Part shown: positions 22,469-41,819 of the stretch, in pieces
Numbering within the stretch: the first letter of the stretch is position 1
How the letters are laid out: each line of letters opens with the position of its first letter
Virus record (IMG/VR): IMGVR_UViG_3300009488_000018
Span: 1 to 64,000 of that record
From: a virus
Direction: 5' to 3' (one strand)
Length of the DNA stretch: 64,000 nt
Notes under the pieces: model-generated
Told to the model about the DNA's origin: nothing
Database searches by the model: none
What the model saw: only the letters and a program-made list of their open reading frames with translations
Translations under genes and position numbers: made by a program

Positions 22469-22821
22469 GGGGGTGAATGGCTTCGACGGGGACAATGAAA
22501 TATATGTTGCGTATCGCGGGCGGCTGACCGTGTTAAAACCAGTCAAATTAAACATAGTCGCAGATGACTATTACCAAGAGATGCGCTTAGCTGCGTAACT
22601 CCGTTCTTTTCCCGTCCCTCTCCGTGGACTCGAAAAGAGCGTCGACTTTAACGGAGATAGCTTGATTTTCTGTCCACAAAAATCAGGCGAGACACTGTGG
22701 ACTTAATCTTCATACAAGTTGTCTGGATACGAGTAAGAAGATGACATTTATAATCCAGAATATATACGTAGAAGCATGTGTTGAAAGTTTTCGGACTCGG
22801 GTTCGATTCCCGACACCTCCA
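22469..22821 (+). ncRNA. ssrA: tmRNA; tag peptide (A)ADDYYQEMRLAA at 22560-22598
   Basis: 5' GGGGGTG..GGCTTCGAC; 3' GGGTTCGATTCCCG-CACCTCCA with G3:U70 alanine identity; internal tag ORF ending LAA-stop. Confidence 0.93.
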
Positions 22822-22843
22822 TCCAAGGTTACTGGAGAAACTA

Positions 22844-25914: not shown

Positions 25915-26127
25915 GTGACAAAAATGATAGAACTATATATACAGAGTCCTAAAACGGAGAAAATTAAAACCGCAAAAGGCACAGTGGACTACTCTGATTG
26001 GTTAGAACAAGAAAGGGACCGGATTAGTTCAGACCCGACTCGGACTGTAGAAGTCAGGGAAAGTAAGAGTGGTGATCAAGTATCTCTCTGGGTTGATGTT
26101 ACGAAACGTAAACGTATCAGAGTATAG
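25915..26127 (+). CDS. Small protein, paralog A, upstream of the RAMP-like gene
   Basis: AAGGAG RBS; MIELY.Q..KT.K..T.KGT.DY..WL.QERDRI.SDPTR..EVRE.K.G...SLWVD. Confidence 0.7.
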   Translation: MTKMIELYIQSPKTEKIKTAKGTVDYSDWLEQERDRISSDPTRTVEVRESKSGDQVSLWVDVTKRKRIRV

Positions 26128-26150
26128 CCCAGCGGAATGCAGCAAAGTAA
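26111..26150 (+). repeat. Short ARY-NN pentamer unit (8 pentamers) overlapping the stop of paralog A
   Basis: aacgt atcag agtat agccc agcgg aatgc agcaa agtaa. Confidence 0.7.
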
Positions 26151-26176
26151 TTAATTTTAAACGGAAGGAGTTACTT

Positions 26177-26377
26177 ATGGGAGAAATGATAGAATTATAC
26201 AAACAAGGTTTCAAAACAGGAAAAGTTCAAACTATAAAAGGTACAATGGACTATATTAATTGGTTAAAGCAGGAAAGAGACCGGATCGGCTCAGACCCGA
26301 CTCGGATTGCAGAAGTCAGGGAAAATAAGATCGGAAATCGAGCGTCCCTTTGGGTTGATAATCTTGTAGAATATTAA
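26177..26377 (+). CDS. Small protein, paralog B, upstream of the RAMP-like gene
   Basis: AAGGAG RBS, ATG at 26177; clear paralog of 25915-26127. Confidence 0.7.
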   Translation: MGEMIELYKQGFKTGKVQTIKGTMDYINWLKQERDRIGSDPTRIAEVRENKIGNRASLWVDNLVEY

Positions 26378-26390
26378 CATACTTAAGGAG

Positions 26391-26445
26391 AGCGGAGTAT
26401 AGCAAAGCCAAACACAGCCGAGCGCAACCTAGCGAAACATAGTTA
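26391..26445 (+). repeat. ARY-NN pentamer unit (11 pentamers) in the leader of the RAMP-like gene
   Basis: agcgg agtat agcaa agcca aacac agccg agcgc aacct agcga aacat agtta. Confidence 0.9.
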
Positions 26446-26469
26446 ACTTAACGAGAAGGAGAAATAGTT

Positions 26470-27042
26470 ATGAAAGAATGGCAAATAGACATAAAAGTTA
26501 AGGGTCTGACTGATATTATGTTTGATCGTTTTTACGATCAAAGTAAAACGAAAAGACCACCCGAAGCAAAAATGTACATCAACGATGGTATTATTTCATT
26601 TCCTAGTATGAATATACGTGCTTTCCTAACTAGCCAGAGGAATGGTGGGTGTGTTCGAGTATTTGAAGGAAAGAACTGGGCAGACTATTATCGTGTCTGT
26701 CAGTCCTTTGTGAAAATCGAGGACTGTTTTATTCCATTCCTTGATGAAAATGAACAGCCAATTAAGTTCGATAACTTCAAGGAGAAAACGTTCATATATA
26801 CTTGTAACGTATTGGTAGGACACGGACAAAACGTAAGTCGTCAAACTATTTCAAGACCAGTACTTAGACTGCCCTGGTTTCTCGAATTCCAAATTATACT
26901 CTTCGAGAACGAACTTATAAAGTTAGAAAAACTCAAAGAGTATTTCCAACGAGGTGGTAAGCTGATTGGCTTTGGAAATGGGAGACCTCAGGTTGGCCAG
27001 TTCGAAATTATCAAATGGGATGTAAGGGAATTACAATCATAG
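26470..27042 (+). CDS. Stand-alone Cas7/RAMP-like protein (candidate VIPR-type RNA-guided effector)
   Basis: N-terminal strand 'WQIDIKVKGLTDIMFDR'; 'IISFPSMNIRAFL' resembles the RAMP IPxxxIKG helix; strand 'WFLEFQIILFE'; C-terminal Gly-rich loop 'GGKLIGFGNGRPQVGQFEI'; adjacent to the repeat array. Confidence 0.7.
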   Translation: MKEWQIDIKVKGLTDIMFDRFYDQSKTKRPPEAKMYINDGIISFPSMNIRAFLTSQRNGGCVRVFEGKNWADYYRVCQSFVKIEDCFIPFLDENEQPIKFDNFKEKTFIYTCNVLVGHGQNVSRQTISRPVLRLPWFLEFQIILFENELIKLEKLKEYFQRGGKLIGFGNGRPQVGQFEIIKWDVRELQS

Positions 27043-28382
27043 CTAAGCCAAGTGAAGCAAAGTATAGCGGAGCCTAGCGAAACGAAGCCCAGCATATGAA
27101 ACGTAGATATCACTTAAGTTGAAAACTTCTAAGTGGTATCTACGTTCTAAGTTAGAAGTTTAAAATAAAAAATTGTAGTCTAACGGAGCGGAGTAGAGCG
27201 GAGCATAACGCAACTTAGTATAACAAAGCATCGCATCAGTTAAGAAAACAATGAAATAGAAAAATACTGGAAGTACTCCCTCAGCCGAGCAAAACACAGC
27301 TGAGCAGACCTAAGTGGAGCAGAGCATAACAAAGCATAGTAAAAACAACGAAATAAAAACACTGAAAGTTTTGGATCGAAGAGGAGCGAAGCTAAACGCA
27401 GTAAAACGCAGCTAAGCTGAGCCGAGCGAAACGAAGCGTAGTTTAATACTAGTAAAATAGAAGAAGTGAAGTATTAAAGATATTTTTTCAGTAACTAAAA
27501 CTAAGCAGAGCGGAGCTGAGTACAGCAAAACAAAACGGAACGGAGCGACACATAGCATAGCATAGTAAAAATAACGAAAAATATAAATGTTATCAGAGCG
27601 CAGTGAAGCTGAACACATCAGAGTATAGCCAAGCGTAACTAAGATCAGCGAAGCAAAGAATAAAAAACGACAAAAAGTAAAATGGATATTCCGGAGCGCA
27701 GCGAAGTTTAACCAAGCGCAGTCCAGCCAAGCACAACCCAACAAAGCAAAGCATAGTCACAACGAGAAATGGAATACTAAAACATTTTTCAGAGCGGAAC
27801 GAAACAAAGTGCAACGAAGAATAACGAAAAAGTTTCAAAGCGCAGCTGAGTATAGCGCAACACAACTAAACCAAGACCAGCTTAGCAAAGCACAGAACAA
27901 CGAAAAATACCAAAATATTTTCATAGCATAGTGAAACAAAGCACAGATAAGCATAACTTAGCTCAACATAGCAAAACTCAACTGAGTAAAGTAATAGTAA
28001 AAGAATAACGAAAAATACTAAAATATTTTCATAGCAAAACTAAGCACAACAAAGTCTAGCTTAGCGCAGTTCAACCTAGCGAAACGAAGCAAAGCATAGC
28101 AAAGAACGAAAAATAAAATACTAAAATATTTCTATAATACAGCCTAGCTGGGCGAAGCATAACTTAGCTAAACGAAACGAAGCGGAGCAAAGCATAGCAA
28201 AGAACGACAAAGAGTAAAATAATGAATATTCCGCAGCTGAGCGAAGCAGAATAGAGCAAAGCGGAACACAACAAAGTACAGCGGAGCATAGTAAAGAACG
28301 AAAAATACTAAAACATTCACCTAGCGAAGCCTAACCAAGCAAAGTACAGCGGAACTTAACTTAGCGAAGCAAAACGAAACAA
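27041..28382 (+). repeat. Array of 14 non-coding units of ~11-15 ARY-NN pentamers (one truncated) separated by A-rich linkers; putative guide-RNA array
   Basis: Units start at ~27041, 27177, 27283, 27375, 27499, 27592, 27695, 27793, 27839, 27925, 28033, 28136, 28235, 28323; linker consensus ~A(G/A)AACGAAAAATACTAAAA(T/C)ATTTTC. Confidence 0.9.
27100..27146 (+). other. Long hairpin between array units 1 and 2
   Basis: aacgtagatatcactta / taagtggtatctacgtt 17-bp stem (one G-U) plus an inner agtt/aact stem. Confidence 0.75.
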
Positions 28383-28385
28383 CGT

Positions 28386-28430
28386 AAAATTGTCACCTGA
28401 CCCATTTCTGAGTTAGGTGACAATTTTTTT
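28386..28430. terminator. Bidirectional terminator between the array and the convergent capsid gene
   Basis: aaaattgtcacctgac / gttaggtgacaatttt followed by a T-run. Confidence 0.8.
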
Positions 28431-28457: not shown

Positions 28458-29930
28458 TTAGGCACCAATAGTAAGCAGAGCAATACCATTACTTCTAACC
28501 AACGAAGTCGCATAACGACTCAAGATGGTTAGACTTGGAGTGTGACCAAGTGGGTAAGGGTGAAGAACTGCTGGAACGTAAGGACAATATAGATACACAC
28601 ACTTCAGTTCTTCAACTGGTTTGTAGATCACTACCATTGTACCTTGTGTTACCACTCCACTTGTTAGAACCTTCCATTTTCCACCAGCAACAGTAGCTGA
28701 ACGATATCCAAGATCACCATCTACACTAGAAGTTCCAGTATAGTTAAAGGTTTGAAGATCTTCAAGGATAGCAACATCTAGAGGATTCGCTAGAATCGTA
28801 TTAGCAGCGTCCATATTTGTATCGTTGTATACTTGAGCAGAAAGTTGGTTCAATACGGGAATGATATTTTCATGCCAGTATTTAGCACCCCAGTAGTAAG
28901 TACCAGCTGGCGTTCTATTAAAGTTAGCTGTATGTGTCGGAGAATTCAGTCTGGTGCTTCCTACAATCAAGGCGTTGATAATTTCCCTGTCGATATCTAG
29001 CGCGATTTGTTGTCCAAGAATATTCACAATTTCTGCTTGCATTGAAAGATCGAATAGAGCCCGCATATCTTGCTCCATATTGATTGTCCAGTTTGCAGAA
29101 ATTTGACGATCCCTAGCATACAGTCTTACTTTATCGACACTTAACTTGACTGCGGGGTTGATTCTGTTTTCTTCTAGTGAACAAGTAACTCTGAATCTTA
29201 CATATGCAACTCCAGTAGGACCTCCAACAACACTAGAAATATCTAGAGTTCCAGCTAGATAATCAACTTTACCAGAAACAACATCCTCAACTCCAGTAGT
29301 TGCATAAACAGTTGCAGAAAAATGTCCTTCAACAGCTGGGATAATTGAAACGTCTACCCAAGTCGTACCATCAGGAGAGACAGCTGTAATTTCGAAGTCT
29401 CTTTCAAGATGCGCTTCCGTACTAGATACTGCAGGAGCAGGAATAAGACCTAAAATGTCAAAATTCAAGGATGGAACTGCAACTGATGCATAAGTTGGAA
29501 TTCCAATACCTGGTCCACCTGAGATGTCAGTTCCAGTAACAGGTGCAGGAATCAGAGCAGTAGTATTCGCAGCTGAGAATTCAGCGTTGATAAATGCTTT
29601 TATCGTTTCTGGTTTATCCATTGGCGACAAAGTAATTGCTTCTTTAGCAACTAGTTTAGGATAAAATACTCTCAGTATTGGAAGAGTTAACGTCTCATAA
29701 GGGTTGATTTGGAACATTGAATTTTCTAGTAAATTTACTCTTGTGTTCTCCGCTAACTGTATAAAAACTTCACGATCATGCTTATTCTCTAGAGACTCAG
29801 CAAGAGCAGTTACATACGCCTCGAAAGCTGTATCGTCTACAAGCACAGCTTTCATGTTTCCAGGTTTACTAGGATCCACTCCACTAACTTTCTTAGTAGT
29901 CTTATAGACTTCTTGAAGTAGTTCCTTCAT
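28458..29930 (-). CDS. Major capsid protein (T4 gp23-like, HK97 fold)
   Basis: 'RQISANWTINMEQDMRALF.L.MQAEIVNIL..QIALDIDREII', 'YCPYVP', 'ILSRY' motifs. Confidence 0.88.
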   Translation of the reverse strand: MKELLQEVYKTTKKVSGVDPSKPGNMKAVLVDDTAFEAYVTALAESLENKHDREVFIQLAENTRVNLLENSMFQINPYETLTLPILRVFYPKLVAKEAITLSPMDKPETIKAFINAEFSAANTTALIPAPVTGTDISGGPGIGIPTYASVAVPSLNFDILGLIPAPAVSSTEAHLERDFEITAVSPDGTTWVDVSIIPAVEGHFSATVYATTGVEDVVSGKVDYLAGTLDISSVVGGPTGVAYVRFRVTCSLEENRINPAVKLSVDKVRLYARDRQISANWTINMEQDMRALFDLSMQAEIVNILGQQIALDIDREIINALIVGSTRLNSPTHTANFNRTPAGTYYWGAKYWHENIIPVLNQLSAQVYNDTNMDAANTILANPLDVAILEDLQTFNYTGTSSVDGDLGYRSATVAGGKWKVLTSGVVTQGTMVVIYKPVEELKCVYLYCPYVPAVLHPYPLGHTPSLTILSRYATSLVRSNGIALLTIGA

Positions 29931-41743: not shown

Positions 41744-41819
41744 TGGAGCGGGCGACAGGAGTCGAACCTGCAGCTTTCGGGTTGGAAGCCCGCTACTCTA
41801 CCATTAAAGTTACACCCGC
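41744..41819 (-). tRNA. tRNA-Gly(TCC)
   Basis: GCGGGTG/CGCCCGC acceptor, CTTCCAA loop, GTTCGA, encoded CCA. Confidence 0.85.

Follow-up and report, generated by a model that had tools for sequence, protein, structure and literature searches.

The window analysed here is a 64,000-nt stretch of viral DNA (positions 1 to 64,000 of IMG/VR record IMGVR_UViG_3300009488_000018), which forms the start of one contig of 124,327 bp, whose G+C content is 35%. Between positions 26,391 and 28,430 it carries a gene for a protein of 190 amino acids (aa), here termed vipr, together with an array of pentamers in which a near-constant triplet of the form A-R-Y is followed by two variable bases (NN). This locus very probably constitutes a phage-borne Viral Interference Programmable Repeat (VIPR) system with ARY/NN guides. 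VIPR systems, as set out in the preprint texts, combine a phage-encoded Vipr protein with guide RNAs (vrRNAs) of approximately 100 nt, each bearing 9–16 GGY/NN repeats and a 3' tail (10.64898/2026.04.26.720920; 10.64898/2026.04.26.720927). One protomer occupies each repeat and buries its GGY, and the NN bases pair with double-stranded DNA, passing over one base of the target at every repeat; G1 is contacted by H17 and D177, G2 by R138 and W178, and Y3 by a pocket that includes R179 (same sources). The natural targets reported are satellites and prophages, i.e. other mobile elements, and seven types are distinguished (10.64898/2026.04.26.720920). An earlier, sequence-only reading of this stretch had drawn such a parallel (GGY/NN repeats beside a Cas7-like gene, serving inter-phage competition), which agrees with these preprints. 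Its proposal, a Cas7/RAMP-like protein for which the pentamer array provides a non-contiguous guide, is supported by the present analysis.

By homology with the solved complex of Escherichia phage SUSP1, the units would be transcribed and processed into vrRNAs, and one Vipr protomer would bind each pentamer, burying the constant triplet and presenting the two variable bases for pairing. The filament assembled on one vrRNA would then read a gapped target (NN, skip one, NN), and this target would be the double-stranded DNA, rather than the RNA, of a competing phage or satellite, which would be silenced.

A Vipr homologue and its pentamer array

Homology and predicted fold identify the product of vipr as a minimal RAMP protein with an RRM core. 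When compared with the sequences of solved structures, the single protein sequence matched PDB entry 36pp, 'SUSP1 Vipr protein' (phmmer E 5.8e-6), and a 38-sequence profile of the family returned the same entry (E 9.1e-10) as its sole significant PDB match. The alignment to the SUSP1 protein is of low identity and covers only the C-terminal two thirds; within it, the C-terminal glycine-rich loop (G-loop) aligns residue by residue, with N170 and G171 of the window protein at the positions of SUSP1 D177 and W178. An AlphaFold2 model (pLDDT 94.2, pTM 0.87) was compared by Foldseek with a PDB library that predates the release of the VIPR entries, which yielded 100 matches at E ≤ 0.001, the top ones being Csm3/Cas7 chains (7uzw_B, E 6.5e-7, TM score ~0.55, probability 1.00). 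The protein is thus confidently modelled as a Csm3/Cas7-like RAMP, in a minimal single-RRM form with a thumb hairpin (approximately residues 107–132) and a G-loop (residues 167–178). At the sequence level no CRISPR RAMP in the PDB was matched, nor was any Pfam or PADLOC family; in PHROGs the protein matches one family of unknown function, phrog_4652 (E 1.7e-8). The open reading frame (ORF) is intact and retains all family-invariant residues. The sequence-only reading had described a RAMP-like ORF of 190 aa and proposed its comparison with Cas7/Csm3 and Vipr proteins, and the Csm3/Cas7 structural matches together with the G-loop alignment indicate that the RAMP hallmarks it named are real.

Period-5 self-identity amounts to 0.417 in 26381–28400 versus 0.279 in a control stretch of the window, with further peaks at periods 10 and 15, and this locus was the sole place in the 64-kb window to pass a sliding period-5 scan. 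Parsing resolved 184 pentamers into 15 vrRNA units on the strand of vipr, with one unit of 11 pentamers upstream of the gene (26391–26445) and 14 downstream between 27041 and 28392, thirteen of which contain 11–14 pentamers while one is short (7 pentamers). Fourteen units, the first overlapping the vipr stop codon, had been counted previously; the overlap is present (the TAG at 27040–27042 runs into the pentamer that starts at 27041), while the count rises to 15 with the upstream unit.

Among the 184 triplets, AGC (93), AAC (49) and AGT (28) predominate, followed by AGA (5), AAT (4) and others (5). Position 1 is A in 181/184 pentamers and G in 1/184, and the canonical GGY triplet is therefore not the one found here; position 2 is G or A (A in 54/184, 29%) and position 3 is C or T. 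The information content is 1.86, 1.03 and 1.15 bits over the triplet and 0.15 and 0.10 bits over the nearly random NN positions, for which all 16 dinucleotides occur and the strings differ in 15/15 units, in line with what had been proposed for the pentamers from the letters alone. The + strand of the 124-kb genome contains 17 runs of at least 6 A-R-Y pentamers, of which the locus accounts for 16, and the − strand contains none, while ten mononucleotide shuffles of the genome contained 1–7 such runs per strand.

Each unit begins with approximately 8–11 variable pentamers; conserved terminal pentamers come next, and an A-rich, apparently unstructured tail completes it. The recurrent unit ends noted earlier are present, AGCAT being the last or second-to-last pentamer in 8/15 units, as are the period of ~100 nt, the A-rich linkers and the terminator: unit starts are spaced 86–136 nt apart, except around the short unit, and a hairpin with a U-run closes the array at ~28386–28430 (centroid −22 kcal/mol, z −3.1). 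The pentamer tracts are predicted to be unstructured (upstream unit z +1.5). A strong hairpin follows unit 1 only and could serve as a 3' cap or an attenuator, or could mark a processing site. With 15 units, the array is the largest among the loci examined, the runner-up having 8. The gene, the units and the associated structures are as follows (all on the + strand; units were delimited by the parse, and units 10, 11 and 13 were also folded).

26470–27042, +, vipr gene, 190 aa, minimal RAMP with RRM core (homology, fold)
26391–26445, +, upstream vrRNA unit, 11 pentamers
27041–27095, +, vrRNA unit 1, 11 pentamers, overlaps the vipr stop
27100–27146, +, strong hairpin after unit 1, no U-run (folding, whole stretch z −2.9)
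27177–27231, +, vrRNA unit 2, 11 pentamers
27283–27342, +, vrRNA unit 3, 12 pentamers
27385–27449, +, vrRNA unit 4, 13 pentamers
27499–27568, +, vrRNA unit 5, 14 pentamers; strain substitutions keep the R and Y classes (also strain contigs)
27597–27656, +, vrRNA unit 6, 12 pentamers
27695–27759, +, vrRNA unit 7, 13 pentamers
27793–27827, +, short unit 8, 7 pentamers, probably truncated
27839–27903, +, vrRNA unit 9, 13 pentamers
27925–27994, +, vrRNA unit 10, 14 pentamers
28033–28102, +, vrRNA unit 11, 14 pentamers, the example given in the sequence-only reading
28136–28200, +, vrRNA unit 12, 13 pentamers
28235–28294, +, vrRNA unit 13, 12 pentamers
28323–28392, +, vrRNA unit 14, the last, 14 pentamers
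28386–28430, +, intrinsic terminator, long hairpin with U-run, facing the 3' end of the capsid gene at 28458–29930, − (folding)

ORFs of 90–110 aa, rich in Leu, Cys and Ala, are readable on the − strand across the array (window 27412–27865); they arise merely from the repeat and could be taken for genes in an annotation.

Homologues of the protein were collected by a word-indexed search of 5.8 billion proteins (6 homologues) and by scans of viral and metagenome contigs (77 loci), with one further homologue in a cultured Burkholderia phage. Period-5 arrays adjoin the gene, on its own strand, in 74/78 homologue loci, and the four loci in which none was found (L034, L056, L067 and L076) are contigs of 1.0–1.8 kb; the sequence-only reading had proposed looking for exactly such adjacent arrays. 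Most of the relatives' arrays are of the GGC/NN type, a link between this protein family and canonical VIPR. The closest relatives, L016, L017 and L074 (53–55% identity), together with L004/L030, L031, L068 and L011, carry AGC/NN arrays. The A-R-Y triplet claimed for the window is real and is shared, as AGY, by its nearest kin. Furthermore, close relatives with identical flanks differ in their NN strings (L016 versus L074; L004, L031 and L068), which is the behaviour expected of guides.

The association was also approached from the array side, by searching viral contigs with a generic AGC-NN motif; the results concern 80 of the 125 stretches found. Sixty-five of the 80 are simple microsatellites with at most 7 distinct NN and no Vipr gene, while the other 15 loci have at least 12 distinct NN, and 12 of these 15 hold an ORF of the Vipr family. 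All 12 loci with a Vipr-family ORF thus fall within the group of high NN diversity.

Viral contigs, including giant-virus bins, commonly contain (AGCNN)n microsatellites that are perfect or nearly so and have one to a few distinct NN (L080–L159); these are unrelated to Vipr genes. Motif-only searches for vrRNAs therefore need a filter for NN diversity.

A conserved gene of ~97 aa adjoins vipr, with one vrRNA between the two, in 39 family loci (e.g. L016:2792–3085, L017:2470–2763 and L031:1237–1542). This gene belongs to no Pfam, PHROG or PADLOC family and may be the accessory (vap) gene of this Vipr family.

The G-loop residue and the first repeat base

Since several viral and metagenome loci represent the same contig, distinct proteins rather than loci were counted in comparing residues with repeat bases. 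The table comprises 51 distinct complete homologues, 49 of them with arrays, in which the G-loop triplet was aligned to G176-D177-W178 of SUSP1. Forty-three proteins (41 with a parsed array) have Gly-Thr-aromatic, and the fraction of A at repeat position 1 is 0–0.24; two proteins have Gly-Ser-aromatic and fractions of 0.34 and 0.47, with GGC and AGC pentamers interspersed; and six proteins with Gly-Asn-Gly, Cys-Asn-Tyr or Cys-Ala-Tyr have fractions of 0.90–1.00. Column 170 is the sole column of the alignment in which the A-type and G-type groups share no residue. Residue 170 of the window protein is aligned to SUSP1 D177, which is reported to hydrogen-bond G1 (10.64898/2026.04.26.720927).

A second link, between the following residue and repeat position 2, is looser. 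The window protein, L016 and L017 have Gly at the position of residue 171, while the other relatives have an aromatic residue there, corresponding to the G2-stacking Trp178 of SUSP1. A is found at repeat position 2 most often in the window (29%, relatives ≤ 17%), but L016, despite its Gly, has just 6%. The change at repeat position 1 goes with Asn170, and the loosening of position 2 with Gly171.

In the distant AGC-type proteins recovered by the array-first search (12 loci), the aligned residue is Gly in eight (seven Gly-Gly-Phe and one Gly-Gly-His), Ser in two, Ala in one and Thr in one, the Ala protein being encoded on the same contig as L011. Two points weigh against a strict reading of the correlation. 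The distant Vipr protein of L111 has Thr-Tyr and yet AGY arrays, while other distant AGY-type clades have Gly or Ser, so that Thr does not always accompany G and other contacts must contribute. Additionally, although the A-type proteins are found at three places in the tree, its backbone is weak and an approximately unbiased test does not reject a single A-type clade (p 0.164); a single evolutionary event could thus be enough to account for the correlation.

A more specific proposal, which we regard as less likely than not, is that replacement of the G-loop Thr by Asn, via Ser, switches the first buried base from G to A, and that loss of the adjacent aromatic residue loosens the second. Protein and guides would then be orthogonal to those of the GGY type, and the phage would be insulated from satellites or rivals that hijack Vipr by means of GGY-type solo vrRNAs, while its own 15 units would give it an exceptionally large set of guides. 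If so, one or two residues would suffice to tune the handle specificity of a VIPR system.

Strain variation, guide content and rival explanations

Contigs from three other runs, 95–99% identical over vipr, were available for comparison at the strain level. In these, vipr and the capsid side are kept while the unit content differs: one contig has 183 other letters in place of 27340–28293, another has 228 letters inserted at 27207–27268, two jump from ~27723/27748 to 28379, and one order is rearranged. As repeats can mislead assemblers, these differences in unit content are only suggestive. Twelve substitutions are shown in the unit bodies, of which seven are R-to-R or Y-to-Y exchanges at positions 2 and 3, three lie in NN and two at position 1, a pattern more in keeping with an A-R-Y constraint than with an invariable AGC. 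Additionally, in related strains a G>A substitution at 27136, within the hairpin at 27100–27146, converts a U.G pair into U-A.

The composition of the guides was assessed on the 139 variable NN that remain when the three conserved terminal pentamers of each unit are left out. These fit the sense codon positions 1–2 of the phage's own long ORFs (logL −376.2, r 0.73) better than an equal mix of the three registers (−382.3), the genome dinucleotides (−388.7) or the reverse complement (−401.3). The sense orientation is preferred by 13/15 units, and the codon 1–2 model is the best in 94% of bootstraps over units. Such a fit to a single codon register is what a period-3 reading of coding targets, i.e. 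one with a one-base skip, predicts.

Several observations count against the interpretation of the locus as a VIPR system directed at competitors. No unit matches its own 124-kb genome better than NN-shuffled controls with skips of 0–2: the best matches reach 15–20 of 22–28 specified bases, the same as the shuffles, and a skip of 3 finds only the array itself, which suggests that the guides point elsewhere. The outcome was the same for two further sets, the 78 homologue loci (320 kb) and 575 kb of sequence surrounding the capsid genes of 28 related phages, in neither of which did any guide exceed its shuffled controls. The composition test is indirect and assumes that the targets share the codon usage of this phage, and GT is strongly under-represented among the variable NN (1 observed versus 8.8 expected). 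The A-rich tail has no predicted stable fold (z ~0), unlike the pseudoknot tail of SUSP1, and a profile of the ~97-aa neighbour gene found no homologue in this genome (best E = 2). Finally, no contig from an RNA library covers the array, although assembled contigs cannot show small RNAs.

Four other explanations were weighed against that of a VIPR system with ARY/NN guides. The large array could consist mainly of decoys, or of guides that load onto the Vipr proteins of other phages in the manner of satellite solo vrRNAs, which are described as redirecting or attacking other VIPR systems (10.64898/2026.10.15.759431). While the record number of units would suit this proposal, the phage has a Vipr of its own with a G-loop state that matches A-first repeats, and none of the 78 vipr loci contains a guide match, leaving it improbable.

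It is likewise unlikely that the locus is a real VIPR system whose guides act as a temporal regulator of the phage's own genes or transcripts instead of those of competitors. Its position between early-looking small + strand genes and the late head module would suit such a role, as would the pairing of VIPR complexes with RNA in vitro (10.64898/2026.04.26.720927), but the guides match their own genome no better than shuffled controls at skips 0, 1 and 2, and the natural targets named in the preprint are other mobile elements (10.64898/2026.04.26.720920).

Equally little probability attaches to a decaying or inactive remnant, in which A-R-Y would be the outcome of decay from GGY repeats, with loading onto the protein lost. 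In its favour are the absence of the accessory gene that the family usually has, the truncation of one unit (27793–27827) and the unusual looseness of position 2 (A in 54/184 pentamers). However, A at position 1 in 181/184 pentamers is a fixed new state rather than drift, the ORF is intact with its family-invariant residues, relatives with A-first repeats have the G-loop residue changed in step, and the strain differences keep the R and Y classes.

Lastly, hardly any credence can be given to a chance or structural tandem repeat, or a − strand coding region, unrelated to the neighbouring gene: although the − strand is readable as ORFs of 90–110 aa across the array and AGCNN microsatellites lacking a Vipr gene are common (65 among the 80 of 125 stretches), all 16 NN are present with 15/15 strings distinct, gene and array are paired in 74/78 loci, and the 12 loci with Vipr ORFs from that same search are all among the 15 with at least 12 distinct NN.

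Genomic setting and relation to known systems

Upstream of the first vrRNA unit lie two small ORFs, A and B, which stand at the position where relatives have the different ~97-aa accessory gene. They are tandem paralogues, each followed by an A-R-Y/NN tract, an arrangement that resembles a duplicated gene-plus-unit module. Neither has a Pfam, PHROG or PADLOC match; ORF B has only 2 close homologues among the 5.8 billion proteins, and its AlphaFold2 model is of low confidence (pLDDT 68) with a beta-beta-alpha-beta-beta layout. The remaining features of the locus, all on the + strand, are listed below.

25915–26127, +, small ORF A, 70 aa, paralogue of ORF B (64% identity to ORF B)
26111–26150, +, eight A-R-Y/NN pentamers in a row between ORFs A and B, perhaps a relic or a short vrRNA unit (tentative, its length being not far above that of shuffle runs of at least 6)
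26174–26377, +, small ORF B, 67 aa, immediately before the first vrRNA unit (comparison with ORF A, homologue search)
26355–26383, +, sigma-70-like promoter match, 9/12, just before the upstream unit (consensus match only)
27008–27037, +, sigma-70-like promoter match, 9/12, inside the vipr 3' end, just before unit 1 (consensus match only)

These two promoter matches are the only + strand sites near units in a consensus promoter scan; −10-like boxes are found 8–14 nt upstream of several units, and genome-wide motif counts show no shared phage promoter. A 357-nt RNA-library contig, 99% identical, covers vipr at 26475–26825, for which DNA carry-over is possible.

Judged from its sequence, the genome is that of a 124-kb T4-like phage. 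The major capsid gene is of the gp23 type (28458–29930, − strand; Pfam Gp23, E 2.5e-31) and is followed by genes for a prohead protease and a T4-type portal. The vipr locus is placed between a block of small + strand ORFs and the head module. The capsid protein has at most ~25% identity to any record of the phage collection, which makes the phage distant from all of them, and the locus has no nucleotide match by megablast against 50,697 phage records. When prokaryotes were scanned with one genome per species, the sole match was a short contig of a metagenome-assembled genome, and no host was inferred. Twenty-eight related phages (62–77% capsid identity) have a Vipr-family gene within 10 kb either side of the capsid gene in a single case (1/28), and this gene is of a different, distant type; the locus is thus an accessory island.

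In that relative, a T4-like phage with 71% capsid identity (L219:15800–16824, − strand of the locus), the distant Vipr-family gene (E 1e-5 to the family profile) is adjoined by a period-5 array whose constant part resembles xGT/NN, indicating that different VIPR types occur within the same phage lineage. A similar period-5 tract is present in L210, with no Vipr ORF detected within the 21-kb stretch.

The window also contains a full-length tmRNA at 22469–22824 (+; Rfam RF00023, 172 bits), for which ARAGORN gives the tag peptide ADDYYQEMRLAA. Between 41455 and 61572, ARAGORN finds 13 tRNA genes and Rfam 11, most of them on the + strand at 53–62 kb; the Rfam match at 41747–41819 was missed by ARAGORN.

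Compared with the type II system of Escherichia phage SUSP1 (PDB 36pp), the locus has in common a homologous, phage-encoded protein, the absence of cas1/2, one vrRNA upstream and an array downstream of vipr, and units of ~100 nt with 9–16 pentamers, each composed of a constant triplet plus NN. The core of the G-loop (RP..G.F), the thumb residue R129 (= R138) and R172 (= R179) are kept. The triplet is A-R-Y here and G-G-Y there, the G-loop has Asn-Gly in place of Asp-Trp, there are 15 units as opposed to 4, and the A-rich tail is without a predicted pseudoknot. Furthermore, no vap1-like or family-typical accessory gene was detected here, although according to the preprint text an accessory vap gene is typical of a VIPR locus and not universal (10.64898/2026.04.26.720920), and the carrier, a T4-like phage of 124 kb, comes from metagenomes of sediment or the subsurface.

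The metagenomic Vipr family (L002–L078) and Burkholderia phage vB_E436 (PQ789831.1) share 27–55% full-length identity with the window protein and have directly flanking arrays. The closest of these, L016, L017 and L074, share both the A-first repeats and the Gly-Asn-Gly G-loop, while most members combine GGC/NN repeats with Gly-Thr-aromatic and lie near the terminase/portal genes of smaller phages, with the ~97-aa partner.

The Csm3/Cas7 proteins of type III CRISPR-Cas share the RAMP fold (RRM, thumb and G-loop) and fixed-step polymerisation along a guide RNA, the step being 5 nt with 3 buried bases in VIPR and 6 nt with 1 flipped base in Csm3/Cas7. No CRISPR array is present here, the locus containing pentamers only and no repeats of 25–40 nt, and there is no cas10 nearby. 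The class 1 CRISPR-Cas gene set (cas1/2, cas5, cas6, large subunit, nuclease) was not found: no Cas or nuclease family was detected in 33 neighbouring ORFs (12.8–41.5 kb), in the ORFs at 24.4–26.4 kb or by PADLOC, as the sequence-only reading had maintained. Rfam likewise has no match in the locus at E ≤ 1, and hence no hammerhead-type separators or ribozyme were found.

Repeats departing from GGY have been reported before. The definition of VIPR allows 'a related consensus' beside GGY, so that the lack of GGY here does not bar the locus from VIPR, and alternative repeats 'NNNGG, YNNNG and NNNNG' are mentioned (10.64898/2026.04.26.720920); elsewhere, 21 clusters with non-canonical 5-mers are described, of which GAC/NN, CAC/NN, WGT/NN and TGH/NN are named (10.64898/2026.10.21.760802). 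The locus shares with these the presence of a Vipr-like gene beside a period-5 array with a divergent triplet. AGY/NN can be written as YNNAG and fits YNNNG, whereas the AAC pentamers of this array (49/184) do not. AGC, AGY, ARY and RGY do not occur in the texts of four preprints (10.64898/2026.04.26.720920, 10.64898/2026.04.26.720927, 10.64898/2026.10.21.760802 and 10.64898/2026.10.15.759431), a comparison that covers the texts and leaves the motif figures (Fig. S17, Fig. S10) outside it. The earlier suggestion of a possibly undescribed variant therefore stands for A-R-Y as far as these texts go, and is weakened by the YNNNG repeats and the 21 clusters already on record. The locus differs from published VIPR in five respects, namely its A-R-Y triplet, the matching change in the G-loop, its array size, the missing partner gene and a tail predicted to be unstructured; since VIPR and non-canonical repeats already feature in the 2026 preprints, it is a variant of a known system and the gain is incremental.

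VIPR is a newly described means of guiding a protein to DNA by a non-contiguous RNA code. The natural series GGY, mixed, AGY and ARY is tied to one G-loop position, which contacts the first base in the solved structure, and thereby singles out one residue as a candidate for recognition of the guide's constant part by the protein; VIPR pairs without cross-loading of guides would serve multiplexed repression. The differences in unit content between strains that are 95–99% identical are as expected of a fast-evolving weapon, and the locus indicates that VIPR reaches large T4-like phages from sediments, as an accessory island.

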